Shown here piece after piece: positions 246 through 64,000 of a stretch of 64,000 nucleotides of DNA (its first letter is position 1; each line of letters opens with the position of its first letter). The position numbers and the translations under genes were made by a program. The DNA is from a bacterium (GTDB lineage Bacteria > Myxococcota > UBA727 > JAUIJE01). The DNA lies in NCBI GenBank assembly GCA_030431455.1, contig JAUIJE010000002.1:193294-257293 (forward strand), read 5' to 3'. The notes below the pieces were generated by a model. That model had not been told where the DNA came from and searched no databases. It saw only the letters and a program-made list of their open reading frames with translations.

Positions 246-1820
246 TCACAACGTCACGCGCTCGATGCGGCGCACCCACCCGTCTGTGTCGTCGTCACCT
301 TGCGCAAACCGCGCCACCACGTTGAACACCTCGTCGGAAAAGCCGCCGACGTTCAAAATGTCCTGCGCGTTCTGCGCTTGCACCGTGCCGTAGGGCTGAA
401 TGTCAATGCAGACAAGCTTCGCCCCGGGATTGCGCGCACTCAAGATGCGCCAGGCCTCCATGGTGCGGGTGCCGCGGCCGATGCCCGCGTCCACCCACGA
501 TTCGCAATCCGACACCATCACCACCAAGTCCACCCGCGCCTGGTCGCGCACGAGCTTTTCGAGGGGCGCGGCACAGTTGGTGCCGCCCGACGGAATCTTG
601 GTGAGCCCGTCGGCGATGGTGAGCACGGTGTCCCGCGGGTTGAACGCGTGCTCGACCACCCGATCGTGGAACGGGATGAGCCGCGCCCGGTTGTTCTTCC
701 GCACCATCGCCGCCCCGAAGAGCGCGGCCACGTCGAGACAGCGCACCGCGGTGGTCGACCCGCGCCGGTACCCGGTCACCGGGCTCTGCATCGACCCCGA
801 CACGTCGATGCACACCGCCACGTCGCCGTCGATGCGGGGCACTTTTTGGAGCGCGACCTCCATCGCGTCCTGCAGCGCATCGGTGATGGGCCGCGGCATA
901 CCCCACGCGTTTTTGTACGCGGTCATCAACTGGTACGGGAACACCCGCGCCTTTTTGATCTCCTCCTTGTCCGCCAGGCGCTTGGCGATGGTCCGCACGA
1001 GGCGGGCATCGGTGAGCACGCCGTGGCGCGCAAACGTGTTCAAGTTCATGCGCGTCATCTGCCAACCGGCATCGCGCGCCACCTGCTTCCAGTCCTCGCG
1101 GTCGAGCCCGAGGCTCTGCACCATTTGGAACGGCACCTTCGGGGGCACCGCCCGACGAGAACCCGCCTGACGCAAGGCCTTGTAGGCCTCGTACTGCTGG
1201 ACCAGGTCCGGCAATGCCTCTGCGTCCACGTCCTTGCCGAGCAAGTACCCGTAGAACGCCGCGCGCTTCTCGGTCGCGGGCTTGGGGTGCACCATCTTGA
1301 TGATGTCCGCCATGCTCGGCGACTGGCCCACCGACTGGCGGAACAGCCACTCTTCGTCCCGCCCCGCCAACCACTCGCGCACCATGCGCTTGGGCCGGGT
1401 CCCGAGGGATTTACGGGGCACCGCCCCCGAGCGCATGATCTGCACAAAGTTGCGCAGCATCTTGCCGTTGTCGATCACGCGGCCGAAGATGTGCTCGGCG
1501 AGCTCGCCATGCTCGACGGTGAGCAGCGCCAAGAGCAGCGCGGGCACGTCCTTCATATACATTTTTTCGCGCATGTAGACCGCGCACTGGGCCACGAAGG
1601 CAGGATCGTCGCCGGCCACGTCGATGGCCGCCATCAACACCTCTTGCAGCTGGGTCTCGGCCCCCGCGTAAAAGGTGCGGTTGAGGCACCCGGTGGCGGT
1701 GTATTGGGCCAACGCCTGCTTGGCGGTGAGCTGGTAGGCCTTGCCTCCAGCTTCATTGCGCACGGTCGCGCGCGGAATGAGTTTGCCCACCACAGATTGA
1801 AACAAAGTTTTGTTGGCCAT
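246..1820 (-). CDS. rsr: Ro60-like ribonucleoprotein Rsr, with a TROVE domain and a C-terminal vWA domain
   Basis: 525 aa. It has a TROVE-like N-terminal region and a vWA domain with the MIDAS motif D-V-S-G-S-M (CIDVSGSM). The RBS GGGAGG lies 6 nt upstream of the ATG at 1820. The ORF-track start at 2006 is rejected because the terminator hairpin lies upstream of it. Confidence 0.88.
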   Translation of the reverse strand: MANKTLFQSVVGKLIPRATVRNEAGGKAYQLTAKQALAQYTATGCLNRTFYAGAETQLQEVLMAAIDVAGDDPAFVAQCAVYMREKMYMKDVPALLLALLTVEHGELAEHIFGRVIDNGKMLRNFVQIMRSGAVPRKSLGTRPKRMVREWLAGRDEEWLFRQSVGQSPSMADIIKMVHPKPATEKRAAFYGYLLGKDVDAEALPDLVQQYEAYKALRQAGSRRAVPPKVPFQMVQSLGLDREDWKQVARDAGWQMTRMNLNTFARHGVLTDARLVRTIAKRLADKEEIKKARVFPYQLMTAYKNAWGMPRPITDALQDAMEVALQKVPRIDGDVAVCIDVSGSMQSPVTGYRRGSTTAVRCLDVAALFGAAMVRKNNRARLIPFHDRVVEHAFNPRDTVLTIADGLTKIPSGGTNCAAPLEKLVRDQARVDLVVMVSDCESWVDAGIGRGTRTMEAWRILSARNPGAKLVCIDIQPYGTVQAQNAQDILNVGGFSDEVFNVVARFAQGDDDTDGWVRRIERVTL

Positions 1821-2002
1821 CGTGTCCCTCCCGGCAAATGTCCTGGGTTGCGGAAGACACTGCGCGAGGCGGGCCAACTTTCGTCGGTGACGTAAGATGC
1901 TGTTTTTATTGGATATTGTGAATCGTGGGCGGTTCCGGATTGATACAATGCGCTCGTATATTATCCAGCGAGATAGGCGATGCGCACGGTGCGGCCGCGG
2001 CC

Positions 2003-2047
2003 CCAAAAAAGGTGCGGGGGCCCGGCGACAAGCACCGGACCCCCGCT
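2003..2047 (-). terminator. Rho-independent terminator of the fasciclin gene
   Basis: On the minus strand a 12-bp GC stem GCGGGGGTCCGG/CCGGGCCCCCGC with a 9-nt loop is followed by ACCTTTTTTGG. It lies directly 3' of the stop at 2087. Confidence 0.6.
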
Positions 2048-2086: not shown

Positions 2087-3973
2087 CTAATTGCTGGGCG
2101 GCAGGAGCACGGTGTCGATGACGTGGATGACGCCGTTGCTGGTTTCGATGTCGGTGTACGTCACCGTGGCGGCGCCGTTGAGCACCACGCCATCGGAGGC
2201 ATCGATGGCGATGGTGGGGTTGCCGGTGGCCGCGGTGGCCACGCTGGTCAGGCCCACCACGGTGGCGGCCAAGTTGGTGCCGGGCACGACGTGGTAGAGC
2301 AGCACGTTGGCCAGCTCCGCTTGGCTGAGGCCGCTGATGTCACCGAGGGCGGCGAAGGCTTCGTTGGTCGGCGCCAACACCGTGTAGGTGGTGCCGTCGT
2401 CGACCGCCAAGGTGGTGGCGAGGTCGGCGGTCACCACCGCGTCCACCAGCGACGAGAACCGGGGGTAGGCGGACAGGGCGTCGACCAAGTTCCCGGGGAA
2501 CACCGCCTCTTGGGGCAAGATCACGCCGTCCACGACGTGGATGAGCCCGTTTTGTGCGGGCACGTCGGTGGCGGTGACCTGGGCGGTGCCGTTGAGCACC
2601 ACGGTGCCGTTGTCGATTTGGATCGACAGCTCGGTGCTGTTGAGCATGGTGGCGGAGGAGAGCCCGACCACCGCGCCGCTGTCCACGATTCCATCGGTCA
2701 CGTGGTGCAAAAGAATGGGGGAGAGCGTGGGGGTCCCGGGCTCGCCCACGAGGGTGGCGACCAGGCCCGCGGGCAGAAGGTCGAACGCGTCGTCGGTGGG
2801 GGCGAACACGGTGAACGGCCCATTGGGCGAGCCGACATCGTCCGCGAGTTCGGCCGCGCCGAGGGCGGTGACCAGGGTGGAAAAGCCCGCGTCGGTGGCC
2901 ACGGTGGGGATGTCCCCGGGGGGCAAGAGCACCGCGTCGATGACGTGGATGACGCCGTTGGTGGTCTGGATGTCGGTGAAGGTCACGTTGACGGTGTCGT
3001 TGAGCACCACGCCCCCATCGACCACGTCCACGGTCACCGGCGCGCCCAGGGCGGTCTCGGCGGTGACGAGGCCGACCACGGTCTCGGCGGTCACCGCGCC
3101 GGGGACCACGTGGTAGAGGAGCACGTCGGCGAGTTCGGCTGGGCTGAGGCCGCTGATGTCGCCCAGCGCGGCAAACGCGTTGTTGGTGGGGGCGAACACG
3201 GTGAAGGTGTTGGCCTCATCGCCGAGGGTGGTGGCCAGGTCCGCGGTGACCACCGCGTCGACCAGGTCTGAGAACCGTGGATAGCTGGACAGGGCGTCAA
3301 CCAAGGTGCCCGGGAAGTCGTTGCCGGGGACGAGCACGCCATCGAGCACGTGAATCACGCCGTTGTCGGCCACGATGTCGGTGGCGGTGACCTGGGCGGT
3401 GCCGTTGACGACCACGGTGCCCTGGTCGACCTGGATCGTGATGTCGCCGTTGAGGGTGGTGGCGCTGTCCAAGGTCACCACCGTGTCCTCCCGGACGTCT
3501 CCGCTGATCACGTGGTGCTGCAAGATGCCGGTCAGGGTGGGCACGTCCGCCAACAGGGCGTCGACCAACCCCGCCGGCAACGCCGCGAACGCGTCATCGG
3601 TGGGCGCCAAGACGGTGTACAGATCCTCCCCGTCCAGGGTCTCGACCAAACCCGCCGCGGTCACCGCCGCCACCAGCGTGTCGAAGTTGCCGTCGCTGCT
3701 CGCGATGTCCACGATGCTGTTGTCCCCGTCACCATCACCATCACCATCACCATCCCCATCCCCATCTCCGTCGCCATCCCCATCCCCATCCCCATCACCG
3801 TCGCCGTCGCCATCCCCGTCGCCGTCGCCATCGCCGTCGCCATCGCCGTCCCCGTCACCATCGCCGTCGCCATCACCATCGCCCGCGGTGTCGCTGGGGC
3901 AGGCGGTCAGGCCGAGGGGAAGAGCGGCCATGAGCGCGGCCACCAGTGTCATTGTCCAGGTTTGTTTCAGCAT
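2087..3973 (-). CDS. Secreted lipoprotein with four fasciclin (FAS1) domains and a long (Gly-Asp)n linker
   Basis: There is a signal peptide with a lipobox (LGLTAC). The FAS1 signature TVFAPTNxAF recurs four times. About 33 GD dipeptide repeats follow the lipobox. Confidence 0.9.
   Translation of the reverse strand: MLKQTWTMTLVAALMAALPLGLTACPSDTAGDGDGDGDGDGDGDGDGDGDGDGDGDGDGDGDGDGDGDGDGDGDGDGDGDGDGDNSIVDIASSDGNFDTLVAAVTAAGLVETLDGEDLYTVLAPTDDAFAALPAGLVDALLADVPTLTGILQHHVISGDVREDTVVTLDSATTLNGDITIQVDQGTVVVNGTAQVTATDIVADNGVIHVLDGVLVPGNDFPGTLVDALSSYPRFSDLVDAVVTADLATTLGDEANTFTVFAPTNNAFAALGDISGLSPAELADVLLYHVVPGAVTAETVVGLVTAETALGAPVTVDVVDGGVVLNDTVNVTFTDIQTTNGVIHVIDAVLLPPGDIPTVATDAGFSTLVTALGAAELADDVGSPNGPFTVFAPTDDAFDLLPAGLVATLVGEPGTPTLSPILLHHVTDGIVDSGAVVGLSSATMLNSTELSIQIDNGTVVLNGTAQVTATDVPAQNGLIHVVDGVILPQEAVFPGNLVDALSAYPRFSSLVDAVVTADLATTLAVDDGTTYTVLAPTNEAFAALGDISGLSQAELANVLLYHVVPGTNLAATVVGLTSVATAATGNPTIAIDASDGVVLNGAATVTYTDIETSNGVIHVIDTVLLPPSN
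3700..3890. repeat. Imperfect hexanucleotide tandem repeat (GTCDCC/GGHGAC)n encoding (GD)~33
   Basis: Runs of gtcgccatc/gtcaccatc units inside the fasciclin CDS form a low-complexity coding microsatellite. Confidence 0.8.
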
Positions 3974-4124
3974 CGCTTGTCACTCCATTGTTGTGCCAGC
4001 AGCGGCATTGTGTGACCGATGCCTCTTCGATCGATGTGGTGACAAGAATTGCGTGAACTGTGGATCGGCTTTTTTGTCCAGAAACGCAGTATGGGAGCGC
4101 GATCGGACCGGCTATACGCAGGGC

Positions 4125-5717
4125 ATGGCCACGGTGGCGTACGGCATGTTGGGCACGACCCTCGATCGCATGGGCGCGCGGCGTTGGGATCGCTGGCGCC
4201 CGACGGTGGGGCTGTGCCAACAAGACGACCTGCTCATCGACAAGCTGGTGCTGCTGCACCCCGCCCGGAGCAAACGCCTGGGACATGAGGTGCAGCAGGA
4301 CATCGCCACGGTGTCGCCCGAGACCTCCGTCGAGCTGGTCGAGCTGTCGTTTCGCAACCCCTGGGACTTTGAAGAGGTCTACGGCAAGCTCTACGCGTTC
4401 TTGCAGACCCAGACCTTCCGCCCCAGCCGCGACGACTACCTGGTGCACATCACCACCGGCACCCACGTGGCCCAGATCTGTTGGTTCTTGCTCACCGAGA
4501 GCCGCCACATCCCCGCGCGCTTGGTGCAGACCTCCCCGAGCAACCAAAAGGAGGACGTGGCCGGGCGCGCCGACGTCATCGACCTCGACCTCTCCAAGTA
4601 CGACGCCCTCTGGCGGCGCTTTGCCAAAGAGCGCGAAGATGCACTGACATTCCTCAAGTCCGGCATCGCCACCCGCAACGAAGCGTTCAACGCCCAGATC
4701 GAACAGATCGAGCGCGTGGCGCTCTCCTCCAAAGAGCCCATGCTGCTCATGGGCCCCACCGGGGCGGGCAAGTCGCACCTCGCCTCCCGCATCTACGAGC
4801 TGAAGAACACCCGCCACCAGACCTTCGGGGACTTCGTCGAGGTCAACTGCGCGACCCTGCGCGGGGACGGGGCGATGAGCGCGCTGTTTGGGCACAAAAA
4901 GGGCGCGTTCACCGGGGCGAGCACCGACCGGGCCGGCCTGCTCAAGAAGGCGGACAAGGGCCTGCTCTTCCTCGACGAAATCGGCGAGCTCGGTCTCGAC
5001 GAGCAGGCCATGTTGCTGCGCGCCCTCGAGGACAAACGGTTCTTGCCCCTGGGGGCGGACAAGGAAGTGGACAGCGACTTTCAGCTCATCGCCGGCACCA
5101 ACCGCGACCTGTCCGAGCGCGTGGCCGAGGGCGGCTTTCGCGACGACCTGCTCGCGCGCATCGACGTGTGGACCTTTCGCCTGCCCGGGCTGCGCGACCG
5201 CATCGAGGACCTCGAGCCCAACCTCGTGTTCGAGCTCGACCGGTTCGAGCAGCGCTACCGGGGGCGGGTCACGTTCAACAAGTCGGCCAAGGCGCGTTAC
5301 CTGTCGTTCGCCACGTCCCCGCACGCGACCTGGGCGGGCAACTTCCGCGACCTGAACAAGAGCGTCACCCGCATGGCCACCCTCGCCCAGGGAGGGCGCA
5401 TCGACGACGAGGTGGTGCAGGGCGAGATCGAACGGCTTGCGCAAAGCTGGGCCAAGACCACGCCGCTGTCCGACGCACAGAAGTTCGCCCGGGACCTGCT
5501 CGGGGACGAGGCCTGGGCCGACATCGACCCGTTTGACCAGCCCCAGCTGGCCCACGCGGTGTTCGTGTGCCGGCAGGCCAAGAGCTTGTCCGAGGCGGGG
5601 CGCACCCTGTTCGCGGTGTCGCGGCAAAAGCGGCGCTCGACCAACGACGCGGACCGGCTGCGCAAATACCTCGCCCGGTTCGGCCTCAGCTATTCACAGA
5701 TTCAGGAGGCCTCGTGA
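4125..5717 (+). CDS. rtcR: Sigma54-dependent transcriptional regulator RtcR, with an N-terminal CARF-like sensor, an AAA+ sigma54 activator domain and a C-terminal HTH
   Basis: 531 aa that are colinear with E. coli RtcR from the N-terminus (MATVAYGMLGTTLDRMG...WRPTVGLCQQ...) through the Walker A motif GPTGAGKS and the GAFTGA loop to the C-terminal RLRKYLARFGL. The upstream 254 codons of the ORF-track call are antisense to the fasciclin gene and are rejected. Confidence 0.92.
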   Translation: MATVAYGMLGTTLDRMGARRWDRWRPTVGLCQQDDLLIDKLVLLHPARSKRLGHEVQQDIATVSPETSVELVELSFRNPWDFEEVYGKLYAFLQTQTFRPSRDDYLVHITTGTHVAQICWFLLTESRHIPARLVQTSPSNQKEDVAGRADVIDLDLSKYDALWRRFAKEREDALTFLKSGIATRNEAFNAQIEQIERVALSSKEPMLLMGPTGAGKSHLASRIYELKNTRHQTFGDFVEVNCATLRGDGAMSALFGHKKGAFTGASTDRAGLLKKADKGLLFLDEIGELGLDEQAMLLRALEDKRFLPLGADKEVDSDFQLIAGTNRDLSERVAEGGFRDDLLARIDVWTFRLPGLRDRIEDLEPNLVFELDRFEQRYRGRVTFNKSAKARYLSFATSPHATWAGNFRDLNKSVTRMATLAQGGRIDDEVVQGEIERLAQSWAKTTPLSDAQKFARDLLGDEAWADIDPFDQPQLAHAVFVCRQAKSLSEAGRTLFAVSRQKRRSTNDADRLRKYLARFGLSYSQIQEAS

Positions 5718-6571
5718 GCCCCGCCCCGCTGACGGTACAAGGCGTGGCCCGGTTGCGGGCCTGGGACCACGGGGGCGAGGGCCTGCCCCTGGTGCTTTTC
5801 CTACACGGCTTTTTGGACACCGGGCGCAGCTTCGACGACGTGTGCGCGCCCCTGTTGGGCCGGGCGCGGTGCGTGGCCCTCGATTGGCGCGGGCACGGGC
5901 AGAGCCAGATGGCGGGCCCGGGGGCGAGCTTTCATCTGCTCGACCACGTCAAGGACCTGACCTTGGCCCTCGAAGACCTCGAGGACCGCTTTGGGAAGTT
6001 GGCCCTGCTGGTCGGGCACTCCCTGGGCGGCAACACCGCGCTGCTCTATGCAGGGGCATTGCCAGACCGGGTGCCGCGGCTGTTGCTCCTCGATGCGCTG
6101 GGGCCGCCGGCCGAGGACCCGAGCGAACAGCCCGAACGGTTGGGCCACATGCTCGCCTTGCTGTCCGCCAAAAAACCGTTCGCCGTGGTGGCGGACAAGG
6201 ACGAAGCCATCGCCCGGCTGATGCGCAACAACCGCGGCCTGACCGCGACCGGGGCCGAACGCATGGTGCGCCACGCGTTGGTGCCACGAGAGGACGGCGG
6301 CTGGGCATTCCCGTTCGCGCGGGACCTGCGGGGGCCGAACCCGGTGCGCCACCCCGAGGAGATGTGGCTCACCCTGTGCGCGCGGGTCACCGCACGCACC
6401 GTCGTCGTGCGCGCCACGAATGGGTACGTGCCCGAGGGCGATCCCATTCCCGGCCGCATCGCCGCGTTGGGCGCGACGATGTTGACCTGGGACGCGCCCC
6501 ATCACGTGCACGTCGAGCAGCCGGACAATGTCGCCCAGCTGATCGGTACGATGCTCGACGCCGGCGCGTAA
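5714..6571 (+). CDS. Alpha/beta-hydrolase fold protein
   Basis: It contains the nucleophile-elbow motif GHSLGG and an HGF oxyanion motif. The GTG start overlaps the rtcR stop (GTGA) and follows the RBS AGGAGG, which indicates translational coupling with rtcR. Confidence 0.8.
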   Translation: MSPAPLTVQGVARLRAWDHGGEGLPLVLFLHGFLDTGRSFDDVCAPLLGRARCVALDWRGHGQSQMAGPGASFHLLDHVKDLTLALEDLEDRFGKLALLVGHSLGGNTALLYAGALPDRVPRLLLLDALGPPAEDPSEQPERLGHMLALLSAKKPFAVVADKDEAIARLMRNNRGLTATGAERMVRHALVPREDGGWAFPFARDLRGPNPVRHPEEMWLTLCARVTARTVVVRATNGYVPEGDPIPGRIAALGATMLTWDAPHHVHVEQPDNVAQLIGTMLDAGA

Positions 6572-6908
6572 CAGATCTTCACACGACGTCGTGCACGACG
6601 GTCAAACGACCGACGTGGGCTGCGCCACTGCACTGTGCACACGTTTTTTGTCGCGGGTGTTCGCGGGTGTGCGTTTTTCTGACGATCGGTGAGTGTGCCC
6701 ACCGTCGTCGATCATTCACGCTTCTGGTTCGATTCGTTGTTCGTCACAAATCTGTGCGGCGCACACCCCGCAACCTGGATCAAATCCACCGCACGCGGTC
6801 GGGCAAAACGTCTCAGGTGTGTCCGGGGGGAAACACTTTTGTCTCATGACACATCAAAAATCCGTCGGTCCGGTCTCGATCGCGGATGCGGACGCAGGCC
6901 CGCGGGGC

Positions 6909-6925
6909 TGGCACAGCCCGTGCTT
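6909..6925 (+). promoter_or_regulatory. Sigma54 (RpoN) promoter with -24/-12 elements
   Basis: The sequence is TGGCACAGCCCGTGCTT. GG sits at 6910..6911 and GC at 6922..6923, which gives the canonical 12-nt spacing and matches TGGCAC-N5-TTGCW at the conserved positions. It lies ~45 bp upstream of a small ORF that has a strong RBS. Confidence 0.55.
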
Positions 6926-6968
6926 AATCTGGGGGTGCGAACACAACCCGATCACCGGGAGGCTCATC

Positions 6969-7091
6969 ATGCGCAACTCTGAAAAGGTCAAAAACCTCAA
7001 GCAACCTGAGGACCTTCTCGAGGCGTATCAATGGTTGGCCTCGCACCTCGGGCTCGGCCAGGTCAAAAAGCCCGCCGCGGTCCGCGGCTGA
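6969..7091 (+). CDS. Small 40-aa protein (MRNSEKVKNLKQPEDLLEAYQWLASHLGLGQVKKPAAVRG)
   Basis: The RBS GGGAGG lies 8 nt upstream of the ATG. The gene sits between the sigma54 promoter and the FHA-EBP gene. Its local GC is lower than its surroundings. Confidence 0.4.
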   Translation: MRNSEKVKNLKQPEDLLEAYQWLASHLGLGQVKKPAAVRG

Positions 7092-7141
7092 TTTCCGCCG
7101 CTCGCCCGAGCGTCCGCCCAAAGCCCTGACCCGACTGTGTT

Positions 7142-8554
7142 ATGCCTGTCGCGGTGAGCCGCGGCACCCTCGCCAACCTACGAGGCACCATCGTCACCGA
7201 CCACGCGTCGGGGACCCCGGTGGTGCGCACCTACCGCTTGGTGGTGAGCGACGGCCCGGACCAGGGCAAAGAGCACGTGCTCGAGCTCGGCACCACCTTG
7301 GTGGGCAGCCATCCCTCGACGGACTTTGTGCTCACCGACCCGCGGGTGTCGCGCCGGCACTGCGAGCTGCGGGTGGTCGCCGACGGTGTCCAGGTTCGGG
7401 ACCTGGGCAGCAAAAACGGCATCTTCGTCGGCCGGGTCAAGGTCGAGCAAGCGGTGTTGCTCCCCGGGGCCAAGCTGCGGCTCGGCGACACCAAAATCGC
7501 GGTGCACAACCTCGACGCGTCGGTGGAGGTGGGAGACCTCGCCACCTTCGGCGACCTGCGCACCGAGAGCCCGGCGATGAAATCGGTGTTCGGCCTTCTG
7601 TCCCGGGCCTCGACCTCGGACGCGACCATTCTCCTCGAGGGCGAGACGGGGGTGGGCAAGGACGTGCTCGCGCGCACCATCCACGCGCAGAGCCACCGGG
7701 CCAAAGGGCCGCTGGTGGTGTTCGACTGCAGCGCGGTGTCCGAGTCGCTGATCGCGGGGGAGCTGTTTGGGCACAAAAAGGGCGCGTTCACCGGGGCGAC
7801 CACCGACCGGGCGGGGGTGTTCGAGGAGGCCGCGGGGGGTACGGTGTTCCTCGACGAGGTGGGCGAGCTCAGCCTCGACCTTCAGCCAATGCTGTTGCGT
7901 GCCCTGGAGAACCGCCAGGTGCGCCGGGTGGGCGAAGCCAAGAGCCGGGACATCGACGTGCGGGTGGTGGCGGCCACCAACCGGGACCTGATGGCCGAGG
8001 TCAAAGCCGGGCGGTTTCGCCAGGACCTCTTTTACCGGCTCGCCATCGTCAAGGTCTCGGTCCCGCCCTTGCGGGAGCGCAAGGCGGACCTGCCCTTGTT
8101 GGCCAAGGTGCTGCTCGAGCGGCTCGGCCTGTCCGGCGACGTGCTCACCCGGTCGGACATGCGCGCGCTCACCGCCTACGACTGGCCCGGCAACGTGCGC
8201 GAGCTCAAGAACATGCTCGAACAGTCCATGGCCTTGTCCGACGAGCACGAGTTCGTGCTCCTCGGTCCCCGGGGGGCGAACGAGCCGGGCCCGCCCACCG
8301 CCGTCGACGAGGACGGTGACGACGACGATTTTGGTGAGGGCGAAAACACCATGACCGGGGTGGGCGGCCCCCTCGACGTCAAAAAGCCTTACAAAGAGGC
8401 CCGCGAAGATGTGCTCCGCTCGTTCGAGCAGCGCTACATCGAGTCGTTGCTCAAGGCCCACGACGGCAATGTGTCGGCCGCGGCCCGGGCCGCGGGCATC
8501 GACCGCAATTACGTCTACCGGCTGATGAAGCGGTTCGGCATCGAAAAGCCCTGA
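7142..8554 (+). CDS. Sigma54-dependent transcriptional activator with an N-terminal FHA domain
   Basis: It has an FHA domain (CELRVVADGVQVRDLGSKNGIFVG), an AAA+ domain (GETGVGKD, GAFTGA, the ESELFGH-like ELFGHKKG) and a C-terminal Fis-type HTH. Confidence 0.9.
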   Translation: MPVAVSRGTLANLRGTIVTDHASGTPVVRTYRLVVSDGPDQGKEHVLELGTTLVGSHPSTDFVLTDPRVSRRHCELRVVADGVQVRDLGSKNGIFVGRVKVEQAVLLPGAKLRLGDTKIAVHNLDASVEVGDLATFGDLRTESPAMKSVFGLLSRASTSDATILLEGETGVGKDVLARTIHAQSHRAKGPLVVFDCSAVSESLIAGELFGHKKGAFTGATTDRAGVFEEAAGGTVFLDEVGELSLDLQPMLLRALENRQVRRVGEAKSRDIDVRVVAATNRDLMAEVKAGRFRQDLFYRLAIVKVSVPPLRERKADLPLLAKVLLERLGLSGDVLTRSDMRALTAYDWPGNVRELKNMLEQSMALSDEHEFVLLGPRGANEPGPPTAVDEDGDDDDFGEGENTMTGVGGPLDVKKPYKEAREDVLRSFEQRYIESLLKAHDGNVSAAARAAGIDRNYVYRLMKRFGIEKP

Positions 8555-8650
8555 CCGCCCTCGGGTCGAGTGTGCGCTGAGTCGCCAAACGACAGACCAA
8601 AATCAGGCGCGTTCACAGTCTTTCATGTCGCGGCGCGCTAGGGTCACGTC

Positions 8651-10036
8651 ATGAGTGGGCTCGCCGACTACGCCATCCAACGCCGCCTGGGCCAGGGCGG
8701 CATGGCGGAGATTTTTCTCGCCCACAAGCGCGGCATGCAAGGGTTTCAAAAGCCGGTGGTGCTCAAGCGCATCCTCCCGCACCTCGCCGAGGACCCGGCC
8801 TGGGTCGAGATGTTCCTCGACGAAGCCCGCATCGCCGCCGGCCTCAACCACCCCCACATCCCACAGATCTTCGAGCTCGGCGCCGAGCGCGGCGAGTACT
8901 TCATCGTGATGGAGTACATCGAGGGGCACGACCTCGACACCATCCTCGCGCGCCACGAGACGCGGGGCACCTGGCCCACCATCGGCCAGGCCCTCACCGT
9001 GGTGCTCGGGGTGGCCGAGGCCCTCGAGTACGCCCACGGCCGGCGGGGCCCCGACGGCAAGCGCATCGGCTTGGTGCACCGGGACGTCAGCCCGCACAAC
9101 ATCATGATCAGCGTCGAAGGCGCGGTGAAGCTCATCGATTTCGGCATCGCCAAATCGAAGCAGAAGGTGGTGCAGACCGACGAGGGGTCGTTCAAGGGGA
9201 AGATGGAGTACGCCGCCCCCGAACAGGTGGAGGGCGAGGAGGTCGACCGACGCGCGGACCTGTGGTCGCTGGGCGCGGTCTTGTTCGAGCTGCTGTACCA
9301 GCGCGCTGCCTATCCACAAAAAGGCATCGTGCCGCGCATGACCGCGATGAAGTCCGGGACCTGGCGCGACGAGATCCCCCCCGAGGCCCTGGCCCAGACC
9401 GCGCCCGCCCTGATGAGCGTGCTGGAGCATTGTCTCGCCCCCCGGCGCGAAGACCGCTACCCCCGCGCCCGGGACGTGATCAAGGCCCTGCACCGTCACC
9501 TCGACGACATCCGCGCCCGGGTGCCCGCGATCGAGCTCGGCCGGGCGGTGCGTGAGCTGTTCGTCGACGGCACCGAGGCCCACGTGGCCCCCGAGAGCTA
9601 CGCGACCATGAGCGCCCAAGGCGAACCCGTGGCCGGCTCGTACTCGACGATGGGCCATCCCGTGCGCGCGCCGTTCGAGGATGCGCTGGGCACCCAAAAG
9701 CTGCGCCCGCCGGGCCGGACCCAAGTGGACGCGGACCCCATTCACTCGATGGCCACCGAGCTCGCCGAGGACGAGAGCGACCTCACCACCGGGCCGAGCC
9801 GGGGCGCGATCCCCGCCCTCTATGGCTTGCACAGTTTTCCCGACGAACAGACCGACCCGCGCAACCTGACGCCCTGGGATGAGCAGACCGGCTTTTTGCC
9901 CGAACCCAATCCGGTTGCAGACGCGGACGCGATGCGCACGCGGGCCCTTCCCGTCCGCCCCCGCCGTGCCCCACCCCAACCGGAAAAAGAGGCGGACCAC
10001 GACGGGGACGAAGGAAAAGACCCCAAAAGCGAATAG
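8651..10036 (+). CDS. Hanks-type serine/threonine protein kinase
   Basis: It has the kinase motifs GQGGMAEIF, VLK, HRDVSPHN and DFGIAK, an APE motif, and a disordered acidic C-terminal tail. Confidence 0.9.
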   Translation: MSGLADYAIQRRLGQGGMAEIFLAHKRGMQGFQKPVVLKRILPHLAEDPAWVEMFLDEARIAAGLNHPHIPQIFELGAERGEYFIVMEYIEGHDLDTILARHETRGTWPTIGQALTVVLGVAEALEYAHGRRGPDGKRIGLVHRDVSPHNIMISVEGAVKLIDFGIAKSKQKVVQTDEGSFKGKMEYAAPEQVEGEEVDRRADLWSLGAVLFELLYQRAAYPQKGIVPRMTAMKSGTWRDEIPPEALAQTAPALMSVLEHCLAPRREDRYPRARDVIKALHRHLDDIRARVPAIELGRAVRELFVDGTEAHVAPESYATMSAQGEPVAGSYSTMGHPVRAPFEDALGTQKLRPPGRTQVDADPIHSMATELAEDESDLTTGPSRGAIPALYGLHSFPDEQTDPRNLTPWDEQTGFLPEPNPVADADAMRTRALPVRPRRAPPQPEKEADHDGDEGKDPKSE

Positions 10037-10557: not shown

Positions 10558-11670
10558 CTAGACGAACTGCACCGCGACGCGTTCGAGCACGGCTTCGAGC
10601 GCACGCTGCCGGGTGGCGGCGGTGAGCAGCGTCCTCTTTTGGCTCTCGAGGTGCTGCAGGGCCTGGTCTTGCGCGGTGGGGGCGAGGTCGGTGACCGCCA
10701 ACGCCTTGCGCAGGTTGTCGAACATGTCGTGGGTGGTGACCTGGAGGGACAAGCTCCCCGCCACCGCGTCGAGGAACCGACCGCAGAACGCGCGGTAGGT
10801 GGCCTCTTGCCGCATGTGGGGGTCGGCGAAGAACTGGTCGCGCAGGCGGGCGATCTGGTCGTCGGGCGCGCCGGCGCAGACCCATTCCGCGGCGTGCGCT
10901 TGCCACATATCGCGTAGGCTCTCGCGCACCGCGGTCTCGGGCACGGGGATGACCCGGCGCTGCTGCAACTTGCGCAGGACCTTCTCCTCGGCCTCGCGGA
11001 CCATGGCTTGGCCCATGCCGAGCTTGAGCTCTTCGGCGATGGCGGCGTCGACCTCGTCCGCGGTGTGGCCGTAGCCGAGCGCGGCGAACAGCCCCGCGGG
11101 GTCGCGGGCGATGACTTCCTTGGCCGCGTGCACGCAGACCACGAACACCGCGGTCTTGCCCGCCAGGCGCAGCGAGGGGTGAGAGGTGCCGAAGGTCACG
11201 GGCACGGACAGCTGCTGGCCGATCTTGCTGCCGGCGATGCCTTCGAACAGGCCGGGGAGCTCTTCGTGGGGCGTGGCCGTGAGCCACACGCCCCGGCGGG
11301 CGGAGACGAGCTCGCCGGATTCGTAGCCCACGCAGTCGACGAGGATTTCGTCACCCAACGCCACGGTCTCTTCTTCGGTGCGGGTGCGGGTCTCCGCGTA
11401 GGCGCTGAGCAGCTCGCGCTTTCTGCGTTCGACCTCGGCGGGCCCGATGGCTCCCCGGGCCCGGACCCGCACAGCGACATTGTCGAGCAGGCGGAGGTCG
11501 AGGGCGGGGGCAGCACCGGCGGCCGACCCTGGCGTGGCCAGGGCGAGGTCCCGGGCGCGGGGGGTCGTCGAGGTGGGCCGCGGGGTGTGGGCGGTGCGTT
11601 GCGCGATGCGGCGGGGACGGGGGGCGCCGGCTTTTTTCGACGCGCGGGGGGTGGTGGTGCGGATGCCCAT
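10558..11670 (-). CDS. Trigger-factor-like protein with an FKBP-type PPIase domain and the trigger factor C-terminal domain. It lacks the ribosome-binding N-domain.
   Basis: The segment GDEILVDCVGYESGELV...LPGLFEGIAGSKIGQQLSVPVTF matches the trigger factor PPIase domain. The N-terminus is a basic Pro/Arg-rich segment instead. Confidence 0.7.
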   Translation of the reverse strand: MGIRTTTPRASKKAGAPRPRRIAQRTAHTPRPTSTTPRARDLALATPGSAAGAAPALDLRLLDNVAVRVRARGAIGPAEVERRKRELLSAYAETRTRTEEETVALGDEILVDCVGYESGELVSARRGVWLTATPHEELPGLFEGIAGSKIGQQLSVPVTFGTSHPSLRLAGKTAVFVVCVHAAKEVIARDPAGLFAALGYGHTADEVDAAIAEELKLGMGQAMVREAEEKVLRKLQQRRVIPVPETAVRESLRDMWQAHAAEWVCAGAPDDQIARLRDQFFADPHMRQEATYRAFCGRFLDAVAGSLSLQVTTHDMFDNLRKALAVTDLAPTAQDQALQHLESQKRTLLTAATRQRALEAVLERVAVQFV

Positions 11671-11759
11671 GGCGGACCTCGATGAACGTGTGGACGGGAA
11701 CAGGAGAACGAGCACAGAGGAAAGGGGCGCGCCGCCGGTCCGGCGCGCCCTTTCGCCGG

Positions 11760-12572
11760 CTACTTGATGTTGCGGATGGCGCCCATCGCGCTTTGGTGCA
11801 TGGTCGAGAGCACGTTGGAGAGGGTCTGCATCATCTGGGAGATTTTGTTCATCTCCTGTTTGATCTTCTCGAACTGAAGTTGGCGGCTGTCGGGACCTTC
11901 GCCCCCGGCGGTGGACCCGGTGCCGCCCGCGGCTTGGCCGGTGGTGCCGCCGGTCGACCCAGTGCCATTGCCCCCGGTGGTCGCGCCGGTGCTGCCGCTG
12001 CCGTTGGCGGGCCCGCTCTCCATCTGACGAATGCTCTGCTCGACCTCTTGTTCCATGTTGCTGATCATCTTCATCATGAACGCGGCGAGGATGTCTTCGA
12101 AGAACATGCCGCCCCCCGACTTGCCGCCGAGCAACGAGGGCAGCGAGCCCGCGCCGAACTGACCGGGGTTGGCGCTGCGCATCTGACCGGTCATCGGGCG
12201 CGCCACGTCGAGGGGATCATTGCCGAGCGAACGGTCCGCGCTCGACGACGCCAAGGGCGACATCGGCGCGCTTTGCATCTCGCCGTTCGGAGGTTGCGGT
12301 TTGTTGGCTTGGACCTCGGACAACGCCTGGGCCACCGCGTTCATGGCTTTGGCTTTGGCCCCTTCGATCATGGCTTTGACCGAGTCGCTGGCGCCGCCTT
12401 GGATGTCTTCGAGCTTCTCGATCTTTTGGAAGACGTCTTTGAGCTCTTTGGTGAGGCTCTGCATCACCGACTGGGCTTTGCCGATGTCTTTGGCGTCGGC
12501 CTTGATGTCCTGCAGCGCGTTCTTGAAGAGGTCGAAGTTGAAGTTCTGGGCGGCGGGGCTGGAAACGTTCAT
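11760..12572 (-). CDS. Hypothetical protein rich in Gln, Met, Lys and Gly, with coiled-coil character
   Basis: 270 aa with clearly lower GC and Lys-rich codon use than its neighbours. The amino-acid composition is diverse, unlike the antisense artefact ORF at 11682..12680. Confidence 0.7.
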   Translation of the reverse strand: MNVSSPAAQNFNFDLFKNALQDIKADAKDIGKAQSVMQSLTKELKDVFQKIEKLEDIQGGASDSVKAMIEGAKAKAMNAVAQALSEVQANKPQPPNGEMQSAPMSPLASSSADRSLGNDPLDVARPMTGQMRSANPGQFGAGSLPSLLGGKSGGGMFFEDILAAFMMKMISNMEQEVEQSIRQMESGPANGSGSTGATTGGNGTGSTGGTTGQAAGGTGSTAGGEGPDSRQLQFEKIKQEMNKISQMMQTLSNVLSTMHQSAMGAIRNIK

Positions 12573-12732
12573 CGGAGACTCCGTGTGTGGTGTGAATGTG
12601 TCTGCATGGTGGGCAGTCGCATTCGGTGTTCGCAGTTCTATGAAGCGAGCGGCGTGCCAACCCTGGCGATCGCGCCGTGATGCGCGGTCTGCGCGACCGG
12701 CGCGGACCGGAGTGCGGACCTGGGATCAAAAC

Positions 12733-12785
12733 GCGGACCGGAGGTCCGCACCGCTGTCCGCGCAGGTTGCGGACCCCGGGTCCGC
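12733..12785. promoter_or_regulatory. Two 17-bp inverted repeats GCGGACC-N3-GGTCCGC, forming a candidate enhancer/UAS cluster
   Basis: Perfect palindromes lie at 12733..12749 and 12769..12785. Extra GCGGACC half-sites lie at 12702 and 12714. The centres are 59 and 95 bp upstream of the sigma54 -24 element. Confidence 0.45.
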
Positions 12786-12834
12786 AGGCGGCCGCGCCCC
12801 ATCGTAAGTAGTTGTTTTTATTCAACAAAGCTCC

Positions 12835-12850
12835 TGGCACGAGCCCTGCG
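12835..12850 (+). promoter_or_regulatory. Sigma54 (RpoN) promoter
   Basis: The sequence is TGGCACGAGCCCTGCG, with GG at 12836..12837 and GC at 12848..12849 at the canonical spacing. It is followed by a 23-codon mini-ORF (12888..12959) and then the lipoprotein gene at 12987. Confidence 0.55.
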
Positions 12851-12986
12851 TAAGAAAGGTGCGTCACCACACCGAAAGGCCCCGGCCATGACCACCCAGA
12901 CCCGCACCCGCCGTCAAAAGCCCAAGACCACCGCCGCCTATCTCCCGGTCGTGTTCTGAACCGTCGCGCCCGGAAAGGATCCCCCG

Positions 12987-13823
12987 ATGCCCCGGTCTTT
13001 CTCTCGTTCATTGTTGTCCGCGTTCGTGCCCACGGCTTGTGCATGGGCATTGTCCGCTTGTCCCGTGGCCGGCGACGCCTGCCTCGCAGACGAGAACTGT
13101 CCTTTCGACCAAGTGTGCGTCGACGCCATCTGTGAATGGCCGATGCCGGGACAAGGCCTCGGAGGCCCCGGGGATAAGCCCCCGGTCCGCCGCGACGACG
13201 CGGGCGTGGTTCTCGCCGACGCCGGGTTCGACGGCACCGAGGACGCTGGTCGACCCGCGGACGCAGGGCCCGGCGCGCCCGACGCCCACGTCGCGACCGC
13301 CGACGCGGGGGCGCACACCCTCGACGCGGCCGAGCCCGAGGCCGACGACGCGGGGGCGCCCGATGCGGCCGGGAACGGACTGGACGCCGGCGCGCCCGAT
13401 GCCGTCGTCGTCGAGCCCGAGCCAGAACCAGAGCCAGACCCGGTCCCGGTGTGCGGCGACGTGTGGGAGCCGCCCCCCGCGAACTGTCCCGCGGCGTGCA
13501 CCGGCGGCTGCGCGGACGGGGTCTGCCACGTGGACTGCAGCGGAACCGGCTTGCTGTTCGGCTGCGTCAACGCCGACATCACCTGTCCCGAGGGCATGCC
13601 CTGCGACGTGCAATGCACCGGCTGGGGCGCGTGCAAGAACGTGCACGTCGATTGCGCCGACAGCGCCCCCTGTTCGATCACCTGCGCGGGCCAGTCCTCC
13701 CAATGTGACGACGCCAGGTTCCACTGTGGGGACAACCAATGTCACATCCAAGCCGAGCCCACGCTGTTCGGCCAGGAAGTTGACTGCAACGACTCTTGCG
13801 ACTGCCAGTACGAGGAGCTGTGA
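12987..13823 (+). CDS. Cys-rich secreted lipoprotein
   Basis: It has a signal peptide with a lipobox (LSAC), a Pro/Glu/Ala-rich linker (PEPEPEPDP) and a Cys-rich C-terminal domain. The RBS AAAGGA precedes the start. Confidence 0.75.
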   Translation: MPRSFSRSLLSAFVPTACAWALSACPVAGDACLADENCPFDQVCVDAICEWPMPGQGLGGPGDKPPVRRDDAGVVLADAGFDGTEDAGRPADAGPGAPDAHVATADAGAHTLDAAEPEADDAGAPDAAGNGLDAGAPDAVVVEPEPEPEPDPVPVCGDVWEPPPANCPAACTGGCADGVCHVDCSGTGLLFGCVNADITCPEGMPCDVQCTGWGACKNVHVDCADSAPCSITCAGQSSQCDDARFHCGDNQCHIQAEPTLFGQEVDCNDSCDCQYEEL

Positions 13824-14905
13824 TGCGACACGCCATCGACCGCGCGTGGTCCTATTTGGTGGGCCACCATTTCGACCAGGCCGAGGGCCTGCTCCACAAA
13901 CAGAACGAGCGCGATCCGCTCACCCAATGTCTCTTGGCCCGCCTCGAGATCGCCCGGCGCCAGACGCCGTCCGCCCTCGAGACCCTCAAGATGCTCACCC
14001 AGTCCAACCCGGACAACGTCGAGGTGCACGTCCATCTCGCCGCGGGCTTGTTCGCCATGGGCCACCGCAAGGCCGCCACCGAACAAGCCGAGCACGCCCT
14101 GCACCACGGCGCCCGCCACGCCGACCTCGAGGTCGTGCTCGGGGCCGACGCGCTCCGGCTCGGCGACGTCGACGAGGCCCTGGCCTGCTACGACGCCGCC
14201 CTCGGGCAATGCCCCACCTATGTCGCGGCCTGGCTCGGCAAAGCCCGCGCCCTCACGCACACCGGCGCGGTGGGCGACGCCGAAGCCGCGTACTTCCGCG
14301 TGGTCGAGCTCGCCCCCCAGGACCCCACCGCCTGGCGCGAGCTCATCCGCCTCGAGCTCAACTACGGCGCGCACGACGCCGCGCGCCAGAACTTCGAGGC
14401 CGCGCGCGGCTTTTTGCGCCGTCCAGAGGTGCTCGACGAGTTCGCACCCCATTTCGTGGCCGACGACGAGCCCGCCGAAGACGCATTTTGGGAAGAGCTG
14501 AACGATCTCTTGTCCAGCGCCGAGAAGAGACCCGCCGCGGTCATCGAGCAGGTCTTCGCCCAGCTCTCCACCAAATGGCGCGACGACGAGCGCTTCGCCG
14601 CGGTCCGCGCCGCCACCGCGCTCTTGTTGTCACAACCCGCGCAGATGACGCGTTCGATCCACGCCTTGACCCAGCTGGTCAAAGACAAGCAACACCGCCG
14701 CTGGCAAACGCTCTGGCTGCTCGGGGCCTTGCAGCTCTCGGACACCCCGCTGTTCCACCCGCACCTGGCCGTGACCTACCTCGAGGAGGCGGTGAAGATG
14801 GCGTACGACAACCGGCTGGTGGTCGAGACCCTGCAGGACGGCTATCGCCGCGCCGGCCGCGAGCGACTGGCCGAGGCGTTGACCGAGCGGGTGCGCGCGT
14901 TGTGA
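13823..14905 (+). CDS. TPR-repeat protein
   Basis: It is overlap-coupled to the upstream gene by an ATGA stop/start and contains several TPR-like helical repeats. Confidence 0.8.
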   Translation: MRHAIDRAWSYLVGHHFDQAEGLLHKQNERDPLTQCLLARLEIARRQTPSALETLKMLTQSNPDNVEVHVHLAAGLFAMGHRKAATEQAEHALHHGARHADLEVVLGADALRLGDVDEALACYDAALGQCPTYVAAWLGKARALTHTGAVGDAEAAYFRVVELAPQDPTAWRELIRLELNYGAHDAARQNFEAARGFLRRPEVLDEFAPHFVADDEPAEDAFWEELNDLLSSAEKRPAAVIEQVFAQLSTKWRDDERFAAVRAATALLLSQPAQMTRSIHALTQLVKDKQHRRWQTLWLLGALQLSDTPLFHPHLAVTYLEEAVKMAYDNRLVVETLQDGYRRAGRERLAEALTERVRAL

Positions 14906-28199: not shown

Positions 28200-28712
28200 T
28201 CAGCCTTCGCGAGGACAGGTGCAGGCGTCGCCCTCCGGGGTGAAGCCGCAGCCCTCGTCACAGGTTTGCATCAGGCGGTGCCGCAGGGTGCGGGTGCCGG
28301 ACGCGACCGCCCCGGCGTCGCACGCGCTGAGCACGTCGGTGTGCAGCAACACGGTGAAGTCGCCGCTGCGGTGCTTGACCAGCTCGGCCCGGTCGCGGAC
28401 CACGCAGCCCTGCTCCACCCGGTTGGTGCCCGCCCCGTCGATCTCCAGGGTGCGCCGCTCCCAGTGCGTGACCTCGTAGCGGTGGTCGTGGGTGTGCTCG
28501 ACGTTGGTGCGCATCGGCATCCACAATGTCAATGTATCTTTCGCGGGGTCGACGTCGATTTCGCCCCGCCGCGACCCGCTGACCCGCAGCACGTCCTCGG
28601 CCGGCCCTTGCGCCTGCACGAGCTCGATCTCATACACCCCGCGCGCGACCACCGGCTCCGAGCCGCCACAAGCCACGCCCCACAATGCCAACGACATGAG
28701 TACCCAACGCAT
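28200..28712 (-). CDS. Lipoprotein, hypothetical (170 aa)
   Basis: A signal peptide with a lipobox (LWGVAC) is visible only from the internal Met. The upstream part of the ORF-track call is low complexity and is rejected. Confidence 0.55.
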   Translation of the reverse strand: MRWVLMSLALWGVACGGSEPVVARGVYEIELVQAQGPAEDVLRVSGSRRGEIDVDPAKDTLTLWMPMRTNVEHTHDHRYEVTHWERRTLEIDGAGTNRVEQGCVVRDRAELVKHRSGDFTVLLHTDVLSACDAGAVASGTRTLRHRLMQTCDEGCGFTPEGDACTCPREG

Positions 28713-60035: not shown

Positions 60036-60133
60036 GGCGACGCCATGGTGACACCGGACACAGGCCATTGCCAACTTCTGCCCGGGGGAGCGGCACGCTT
60101 TTTTTGCGCGGTTGTTCGACGTATACGCGGGGC

Positions 60134-63287: not shown

Positions 63288-63419
63288 GCCACCGCGAAAT
63301 CCACGCGATCGCGCCGGTTTTCTGAGACCGGGCCCGGGGGCCGGGCGCTTGGCGCCGGGCGCGAGCGGCTGGCACCGGGCTTGCGTTCGGACCGGGACAA
63401 ACAACCAGGAGTTTGTCCA

Positions 63420-64000
63420 TGACCCGCCGCCTCCCCCGAATCGCGCTCGCCCTCGGTCTTGTCACCGCGACCGCCGCCGCCTGCCCGATGCCGACCCGCG
63501 CCGGCGACGTCACCGTCCGCCCCTTGCCCACCCACGAGACCGGGGCCTGGGTCGGCGTGACCGAAGACCCGGCCGGCCAACGCTTCGCGCTTCACAGCCA
63601 GGGCGGCCTGTACCAGCTCGACGACGACGGGGACGCCACCTTGTTGGCCAGCCCCGCGCTCATGTTGGCCGACGCCGACGCGCAGCCCACCAGCGACTTT
63701 CACGACGTGGCCGCGATGGGCGGGGGCCGCTTTGTCCTGATCGCCGACAACGACGGGTTTTTGTACGACCACAACTTCGCGCTGCTCACGCGCCACTTTT
63801 GTTACGAGCCGAACATGAACGGCGAGCCCTGGAGCCCGGGCCCCGATCCCGTGCCCACCGCCGCCAGCGCGCGCCAACGCGCCTTGAGCCTCGACTACGA
63901 CGCGGCCAACCACCGCATCATCGCGCAACCGCGCACCTTCGACGAAGACACCGGCGAGACCGTGGCCGCCCACGTGGCCAGCTTCGACGGCGCCACCGGG
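63420..64000 (+). CDS. Lipoprotein, hypothetical. It is partial and continues past the window end.
   Basis: The RBS AGGAG lies 9 nt upstream of the ATG. It has a lipobox (ATAAAC). The frame is open to the end of the window. Confidence 0.55.

Follow-up and report, generated by a model that had tools for sequence, protein, structure and literature searches.

What does a very short open reading frame (ORF) do when it is placed between a sigma-54 type promoter and the genes for a sigma-54 activator and a Hanks-type kinase? The locus that raises this question lies near one end of a 64,000-nucleotide (nt) stretch of contig JAUIJE010000002.1, from a bacterium of the Myxococcota; we refer to this whole stretch as the window, and coordinates are positions within it unless a related locus is named. 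The original prediction for the locus had described a sigma-54 promoter, a strong GGGAGG ribosome-binding site and a 40-codon ORF of lower GC content, followed by an FHA-domain sigma-54 activator and a Hanks kinase, and had proposed an autoregulated module in which the activator is controlled through phospho-threonine recognition. Promoter motif, ribosome-binding site, ORF, activator and kinase were all recovered where they had been placed, the activator with its FHA-like domain, its AAA+ domain with GAFTGA motif and its helix-turn-helix (HTH) and the kinase with its catalytic motifs; the two regulatory proposals fared less evenly, as described below.

With some confidence, we propose the following joint reading, in which a sigma-54 promoter, a translated 40-codon first cistron, a conserved activator–kinase pair and an enhancer at 12701–12786 belong together. 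The motif at 6909–6925 would be a real sigma-54 promoter, its transcript beginning near 6935, with the translated 40-codon ORF as first cistron and a lineage-specific, small, basic, helical peptide as its product. The transcript would cross a weak hairpin into an activator gene that has no Shine-Dalgarno sequence, and probably run on into the gene for the adjacent soluble Hanks kinase. The state of this kinase would be sensed by the N-terminal FHA-like domain of the activator, which in turn would gate assembly of the AAA+ ring. The active activator would then bind arrays of YGCGGAC half-sites, the main enhancer in the window being the one at 12701–12786, and from there would fire two promoters, 12659(−) and 12835(+), driving secreted or unknown proteins. 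The features of the locus itself are these:

6581–6650, plus strand: compound stem-loop followed by U6, likely the terminator of the upstream rtcR–hydrolase operon (from fold and sequence)
6868–6904, plus strand: degenerate half-sites of the YGCGGAC type immediately before the promoter, at ordinary local density (from sequence)
6909–6925, plus strand: sigma-54 type promoter TGGCAC-AGCCC-GTGCTT, TGGCACAGCCCGTGCTT (from sequence motif and intergenic placement)
6957–6962, plus strand: Shine-Dalgarno sequence GGGAGG, with a 6-nt spacer to the ATG at 6969
6969–7091, plus strand: 40-codon ORF encoding MRNSEKVKNLKQPEDLLEAYQWLASHLGLGQVKKPAAVRG, with TGA at 7089–7091 (from codon usage, Shine-Dalgarno sequence and ATG)
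7074–7088, plus strand: GC hairpin GCCGCG-GTC-CGCGGC directly before the stop codon, with just UGAUUU after it (from sequence)
7142–8554, plus strand: sigma-54 enhancer-binding protein of 470 amino acids (aa) (from Pfam domains and motifs)
8651–10036, plus strand: Hanks-type Ser/Thr kinase of 461 aa (Pkinase, PF00069, E 5e-37)

How good is the case for a promoter at 6909? The −24 element of TGGCACAGCCCGTGCTT is an exact TGGCAC, and its GG (6910–11) is separated from the GC of the −12 element (6922–23) by a gap of 10 nt. The sigma-54 consensus is TGGCAC-N5-TTGCW, with GG and GC exactly 10 nt apart (PMC12316311), and the single departure from it at 6909 is a G for T in the −12 element (GTGC, not TTGC). 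The count of such motifs is by itself weak evidence, since the strict pattern TGGCAC-N6-TGCW occurs once in the window against 0.28 expected, and the looser TGGCAC-N7-GC four times against 6.5 expected. It is the placement of the four looser matches that makes the call credible. They lie at 6909(+), 12659(−), 12835(+) and 63370(+), all intergenic and none inside a gene, in the approximately 8.5% of the window that is DNA without gene-like ORFs, an arrangement with a random probability of roughly 0.085^4 and thus very unlikely; all four, moreover, are oriented toward a Shine-Dalgarno sequence and an ATG 50–90 nt downstream. The layout of promoter, short untranslated region, Shine-Dalgarno sequence and ATG found at 6909 recurs at 12659, 12835 and 63370. 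The lack of genic matches, the faultless placement and the presence of genes for two sigma-54 activators in the window make it likely that the four sites are working sigma-54 promoters. At 6909, the promoter sits in a 570-nt gap (6572–7141) with the ATG at 6969 located 60 nt downstream, and its transcription start is predicted at about 6934–6936; no sigma-70-like site was found in 6400–8800. The stem-loop and U6 at 6581–6650 indicate that the unit behind the 6909 promoter is transcribed separately from the upstream operon.

The same figures bear on the most sceptical explanation, in which promoter-like motif and ORF are both products of chance in a long, GC-rich intergenic region and the activator gene is transcribed from a promoter of another type. 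The low expectation for the strict motif, 0.28 per window, does not make one chance match surprising, the −12 element is imperfect, and most relatives have no equivalent promoter. Against these points stand the intergenic and correctly oriented placement of all four TGGCAC-N7-GC sites, the recurrence of the layout at the three other promoters, and a codon score of the ORF within the top 1% of decoys, and we judge coincidence to be very improbable indeed.

Two side observations concern the region between the putative terminator and the promoter. Directly past the terminator, at 6651–6680, are three tandem copies of a 10-mer (CGGGTGTKCG), and arms within this repeat region (6655–6673) pair with 6759–6768.

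Is the 40-codon ORF translated? A codon model trained on 30 long ORFs of the window with high GC content at third codon positions (GC3) assigns it a log-likelihood of +0.32 bits per codon, with the remaining five frames negative. This score exceeds those of 99% of 193 decoy ORFs of 30–60 aa and of all 5000 shuffles, lies at the 18th percentile among 40-codon chunks of real genes, and is surpassed among intergenic ORFs of at least 15 aa only by a missed gene of 170 aa. The GC content by codon position (0.66/0.37/0.76) has a coding pattern, while the sequence ahead of the ATG, read in the same frame, is flat (0.57/0.59/0.65) and has a codon score of −0.46. GGAGG with a start codon, as found here, marks several real gene starts in the window, and both NCBI and Logan records call the ORF a gene. 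By codon usage, strong Shine-Dalgarno sequence and ATG, then, the ORF looks translated. The lower GC content ascribed to it was also confirmed, at 59.3% against 68.2% for the activator gene, with GC3 of 0.76 against 0.89–0.91. The encoded peptide, MRNSEKVKNLKQPEDLLEAYQWLASHLGLGQVKKPAAVRG, is basic (4.5 kDa, pI 9.7) and contains neither Thr nor Cys; a single amphipathic helix is predicted, spanning residues 13–27. Lacking Thr, it is not itself a phospho-threonine ligand of the FHA domain.

Searches for relatives of the peptide returned little. A word-indexed search of an index of 5.8 billion proteins found the peptide itself only, no Pfam or NCBIfam model matched, and an exhaustive phmmer search over 1.84 billion representatives yielded two marginal matches. 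Both were rejected as chance: P0005 is a low-complexity repeat protein, and P0006, with 61% identity over 25 aa, looks like an antisense ORF within a tandem repeat, where the plus frame is interrupted by stops in every repeat and the opposite strand, judged by eye, seems Cys-rich and Sushi-like. Five public contigs (Logan) carry the small ORF at 99.3–100% identity to the window and are uninformative on conservation, and DNA comparable to the small-ORF region is retained in no related genome examined. A GTDB scan for closer relatives of the locus was dominated by the generic AAA+ motif (best match 48% identical), and a metagenome scan with the FHA region gave matches at no more than 49% identity. 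Nor does the ORF seem to derive from the gene, for a lipoprotein or an unknown protein, that stands ahead of the activator gene in relatives; this candidate origin was rejected for want of any similarity. The scarcity of homologues says little in this lineage, since a neighbouring 270-aa gene with excellent GC3 is equally orphan.

It is conceivable, if unlikely, that the ORF encodes no functional protein; the segment between about 6935 and 7141 would then serve as a 5′ leader or, in the manner of glmY, give a short sigma-54-dependent RNA with its end at the 7074–7088 hairpin. An absence of protein homologues and of Pfam or NCBIfam matches, together with a GC content equal to that of the surrounding non-coding DNA, would suit an RNA. 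The leader as a whole folds modestly better than its shuffles (z −2.15), the hairpin abuts the stop codon, and there is a precedent for a sigma-54-dependent small RNA (sRNA) gene that lies upstream of the genes for its kinase and activator and shares an operon with them (PMC3045617, PMC8745638). Gene-like codon usage confined to the frame of the ORF, and a strong Shine-Dalgarno sequence at ideal spacing, argue against an RNA, as do the RNA features themselves: sub-regions of the leader fold no better than shuffles, Rfam returned no match for the leader, whether at gathering threshold or with E≤1 allowed, and the hairpin at 7074–7088, which lacks a U-tract and is no more stable than its shuffles, would be at most a weak or partial terminator. 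On these grounds (no Rfam match, no U-tract, shuffle-like fold) we rejected membership among GlmY-like sRNAs, and the orphan status of the peptide is uninformative given the equally orphan 270-aa gene. Coding statistics favour a peptide over an RNA, and a dual role as peptide and RNA may apply. Returning to a translated first cistron, the activator gene, 50 nt further on, has no Shine-Dalgarno sequence of its own, so that a translated upstream cistron could aid its expression; the 40-aa product may most economically be regarded as that of a leader cistron serving this end.

The activator has the composition expected of a sigma-54 enhancer-binding protein, with an FHA/Yop-YscD_cpl domain at aa 37–121, an AAA+ domain at aa 141–305 (Sigma54_activat, PF00158, E 1.3e-64) and a Fis-type HTH_8 (PF02954) at aa 425–465. 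Its Walker A (GETGVGKD), GAFTGA (aa 214–219, nt 7781–7798) and Walker B (DEVGE) motifs are intact. FHA domains contact phospho-threonine through the residues G-R, S-x-x-H and N-G, as in Rad53 and GarA. Two of these elements, S-R-x-H and N-G, are kept across the activator family, as SRRH and SKNG in the window, but the Arg of the canonical GR is a Ser here (GS; nt 7295–7300), and across 120 family members (including P0007–P0125) this position is Thr in 105, Ser in 14, Gly in 1 and Arg in none. The N-terminal domain, furthermore, matches the FHA model (PF00498, E 1.4e-15) less well than the YscD-type model PF16697 (E 8.3e-19). Of the proposed recognition of phospho-threonine, therefore, the fold and two of the contact motifs stand and the phosphate-binding Arg does not; reading of phospho-threonine by this FHA-like domain remains plausible, with the conserved kinase neighbour as indirect support. 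That a whole subfamily of 120 sequences lacks the canonical Arg and yet has kinase neighbours poses a concrete question as to how such domains read kinase output, and may be the most useful aspect of this locus beyond the locus itself.

The kinase follows the activator gene after a gap of 96 nt. It has the HRD (HRDVSPHN), DFG and APE motifs, a disordered acidic tail and no transmembrane segment, and should be soluble. Is its position fortuitous? A protein search revealed a well-populated family of full-length activator relatives at 47–60% identity, and the loci of eleven relatives were compared, namely L163–L171, which form the closest group, L172 and L173. A kinase lies downstream of the activator in 9/9 loci of the closest group, which represent seven distinct contexts and activator identities of 54–60%, either directly after the activator gene or past one small, secreted, TPR-like gene. 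These kinases are orthologous to the kinase of the window (42–47% identity over the catalytic domain); most have one membrane segment, and the window kinase and two others have none. Of the two more distant relatives, L172 carries a different kinase, in convergent orientation, and L173 lacks one. The activator–kinase pairing is conserved and very probably functional.

Where might the activator bind? The strongest candidate in the window is an array situated between two divergent sigma-54 promoters. It is listed here with the features around it and, last, the distant fourth promoter of the window:

10558–11715, minus strand: trigger-factor-like gene (TIGR00115, E 1e-21, below the family cutoff), following the 270-aa gene
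11760–12572, minus strand: orphan 270-aa gene, downstream of the 12659 promoter
12645–12659, minus strand: second sigma-54 promoter, TGGCAC-GCCGC-TCGC, placed to drive the 270-aa gene and then the trigger-factor-like gene
12701–12786: candidate enhancer with seven exact YGCGGAC half-sites, five at 12-nt spacing (from motif statistics)
12732–50: CGCGGAC-N5-GTCCGCA, inside the candidate enhancer
12768–12786: perfect 19-bp palindrome TGCGGAC-CCCGG-GTCCGCA, inside the candidate enhancer
12835–12849, plus strand: third sigma-54 promoter, TGGCAC-GAGCC-CTGC, divergent from that at 12659
12888–12959, plus strand: 23-aa ORF encoding MTTQTRTRRQKPKTTAAYLPVVF, first cistron behind the 12835 promoter
12987–13823, plus strand: secreted Cys-rich protein of 278 aa, downstream of the 23-aa ORF
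13796–14905, plus strand: TPR protein gene, downstream of the 278-aa gene
63370–63421, plus strand: near-consensus sigma-54 promoter TGGCACCGGGCTTGCG, then AGGAG and an ATG at 63419 (from sequence)

The half-site YGCGGAC is itself common (60 copies in the window against about 44 expected), and it is its arrangement that stands out. The exact palindrome TGCGGAC-N5-GTCCGCA has two copies in the 1.31 Mb searched, one at 12768 in the window and one in L163 (2635–2653), and both adjoin sigma-54 promoters; with at most one mismatch allowed, the window holds 2 copies against 0.03 expected. The array lies midway between the promoters 12659(−) and 12835(+), 42–134 nt from their −24 elements. In L163, the activator is 58% identical to that of the window and its HTH (P0007) nearly identical, and a perfect sigma-54 promoter, TGGCACGCGGATTGCG, precedes an operon of lipoprotein, activator, TPR and kinase genes, with the identical 19-bp palindrome (TGCGGAC-CCGGG-GTCCGCA) 30 bases upstream of TGGCACGCGGATTGCG and a degenerate second copy beside it. 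The array at 12701–12786 would accordingly be a binding array of the family to which the window's activator belongs, with 12659(−) and 12835(+) as its direct targets, an assignment that we infer from co-occurrence in two genomes.

Several further observations concern these promoters and their genes. The 270-aa protein has helical ends and a middle rich in Gly, Ser and Thr, with weak WXG100 and FlgM-like hints only. The 23-aa peptide MTTQTRTRRQKPKTTAAYLPVVF contains 6 Thr (pI 11.7). Its ORF has gene-like codon usage, scoring +0.29 bits per codon (top 2% of decoys), and provides a second example in the window of a short first cistron behind a sigma-54 promoter. By eye, L163 also contains a divergent TGGAAC-N5-TTGCT facing the opposite way. 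In L172, where the activator is 52% identical, its gene diverges from a set of four small unknown genes driven by a perfect sigma-54 promoter, TGGCACCGGCCTTGCG (7875, minus strand), and a direct repeat, TGGTGCCTG-N-GGCCCCACC, occupies the shared intergenic region (7800–8000). The gene behind the 63370 promoter has a signal-peptide-like N-terminus with a Cys, resembles a lipoprotein and runs past the end of the window; no YGCGGAC sites were found upstream of this promoter. Several sigma-54 promoters share the motif TGCGAACAC / GGTGCG, 10–13 nt past the −12 GC and near the expected start (from sequence, at 6936–6944, 12626–12634 on the minus strand and 12857–12866 in the window, and near 7850 on the minus strand of L172).

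Does the activator also control its own promoter, as the original prediction supposed? Just upstream of the promoter lie one exact half-site, TGCGGAC (6887–6893), two with one mismatch each, CGCGGAT (6881) and GCCCGCG (6898), and, by direct reading, a weaker match, GTCCGGT (6868); the cluster ends five bases before the TGGCAC of the promoter. We rejected this cluster as evidence for self-binding, its density not being distinctive, and the claim of autoregulation stays a conjecture: the one statistically solid candidate array is that at 12701–12786, 5.8 kb away, whereas 6909 has one exact half-site amid ordinary density. Self-control does appear to exist in the activator family, as the palindrome and sigma-54 promoter directly ahead of the activator operon in L163 imply, and self-activation at 6909 through degenerate, promoter-proximal half-sites is possible. 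A half-site this close to the promoter, at −40, might even repress it.

RtcR or an unlinked activator could equally fire the 6909 promoter. We consider it possible, though we lean against it, that the promoter is real but served by such a protein, either the RtcR-type activator encoded 1.2 kb upstream or one encoded elsewhere, with the FHA activator forming a downstream tier of a cascade. The gene for RtcR (about 4113–5717) lies just upstream and points in the same direction, the strong half-site array is located away from 6909, and Myxococcus xanthus has documented cascades in which activators regulate the genes of other activators (PMC9765219). The arrangement in L163, with palindrome and promoter immediately upstream of the activator-containing operon, argues for self-control instead, and a terminator-like structure stands between the rtcR operon and the 6909 promoter; no testable binding motif is known for RtcR.

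Returning to the joint reading, in which the activator, its kinase and the short first cistron form one circuit with the enhancer at 12701–12786, several observations weigh against it. Half-site density at 6909 is not exceptional, with similar densities elsewhere in the window, and a half-site at about −40 is too close for classical DNA looping. An upstream sigma-54 promoter is present in some relatives only, strong in L163, moderate in L170 and L171 and absent from L164–L169, so that the notion of such a promoter ahead of every orthologue had to be rejected; in L172 it is found on the divergent strand. The GC content of the small ORF is at the level of the flanking non-coding DNA (59.7%), its peptide found no homologue, and its sole related sequences come from near-identical strains, in which none of the 4 variants within 6572–7141 touches the ORF or the promoter core. 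The 50-nt gap before the activator gene and the unremarkable RNA folds (z −0.8 to −2.15) give no support for translational coupling, and the FHA-like domain is without its canonical Arg.

How does this layout relate to known systems? FHA-domain sigma-54 enhancer-binding proteins of M. xanthus were reportedly described, with a proposed link to Hanks kinases, by Jelsbak, Givskov and Kaiser in 2005 (PNAS 102:3010, cited in PMC12288465). The activator studied here resembles the M. xanthus FHA activators in its order of N-terminal FHA, sigma-54 AAA+ and HTH domains and in its association with Hanks rather than histidine kinases. It differs in that the Arg of GR is replaced, the partner kinase is adjacent by conserved synteny, and an orphan 40-codon ORF comes first. 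In Myxococcus, FHA-type activators with links to Hanks kinases, sigma-54 promoters ahead of activator genes and enhancers with several sites are all established themes (Jelsbak et al. 2005; PMC9765219), and the locus is in this respect a fairly ordinary regulatory layout; what is noteworthy is the orphan, probably translated first cistron, the family-wide loss of the FHA Arg, and a palindrome found across genera that would define a small local regulon.

The nearest architectural precedent appears to be the glmY–glrK(qseE)–qseG–glrR(qseF) locus of Enterobacteriaceae, in which a sigma-54 promoter and a short sRNA gene stand ahead of the circuit's own kinase and activator genes (PMC3045617, PMC8745638). 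Common to both is a very short first gene, behind a sigma-54 promoter, directly upstream of kinase and activator genes. In the enterobacterial case, however, this gene yields a non-coding sRNA, and its partners are a histidine kinase and, as activator, a response regulator that binds three upstream sites, whereas here the short element is coding-like, the kinase is of the Hanks type, the input domain is FHA-like and the promoter has no strong activator sites. The three GlrR sites upstream of glmY, TGTC-N10-GACA, constitute a multi-site enhancer (PMC3045617), to which the array at 12701–12786 is comparable, with a textbook enhancer-like geometry of palindromic sites upstream of −24 elements, here common to two divergent sigma-54 promoters. 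Its half-site (YGCGGAC), N5 spacer and 12-nt periodicity are different, and its assignment to the activator comes from co-occurrence. A further parallel is the Nla28 network of M. xanthus, in which activators control their own genes and those of others from sigma-54 promoters, with direct binding documented (PMC9765219); the present activator gene likewise lies behind a sigma-54 promoter, with self-regulation suggested by the L163 layout and one half-site.

If our reading is right, the locus represents a compact sigma-54 circuit in a poorly sampled myxobacterial lineage, comprising a synteny-paired Hanks kinase and FHA-like activator, a predicted 19-bp palindrome common across genera, three local target promoters, and two ORFs of unannotated size behind sigma-54 promoters. 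The small ORF would add little unless it is translated and functional. We can further imagine, while giving the idea only a slight chance, that the 40-aa and 23-aa ORFs are micro-protein parts of the kinase/FHA-activator circuit, together forming a small-protein control layer in which the helical peptide would modulate activator or kinase and the Thr-rich one would serve as a substrate of the kinase or a ligand of the FHA domain. Such a layer acting on enhancer-binding proteins, if true, would not have been described previously.

Upstream of the locus, the window contains the following genes, all assigned by domain scan:

246–2006, minus strand: Ro60/TROVE–vWA gene
2087–3973, minus strand: four-fasciclin gene
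about 4113–5717, plus strand: RtcR-type sigma-54 activator, divergent from the fasciclin and Ro60 genes
5714–6571, plus strand: alpha/beta hydrolase

No RtcB or RtcA domain was found among the ORFs scanned, and no Y-RNA by Rfam. A TGGCAC at about 3990 on the minus strand has no −12 GC. Farther downstream, 15685–23019 (minus strand) encodes a 2444-aa protein with 41 DUF4215 repeats and an RCC1-like repeat, whose GC3 of 0.72 is below that of its neighbours. The DUF4215 repeats, the composition of the window and the taxa of the best protein matches (Myxococcales, Polyangiaceae, Kofleriaceae) point to Myxococcota; the species was not among the reference genomes scanned. The 170-aa ORF mentioned above, at 28200–28712 (minus strand), has an N-terminus with signal peptide and Cys and a codon score of +0.40 bits per codon; it is absent from the GC3-based gene list, its region having been counted as intergenic. 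An Hsp70-like protein fused to a PilZ domain is encoded at 36279–38741 (minus strand), and a bpMoxR ATPase of the MoxR–vWA–beta-propeller ternary systems at 60068–61327 (plus strand).

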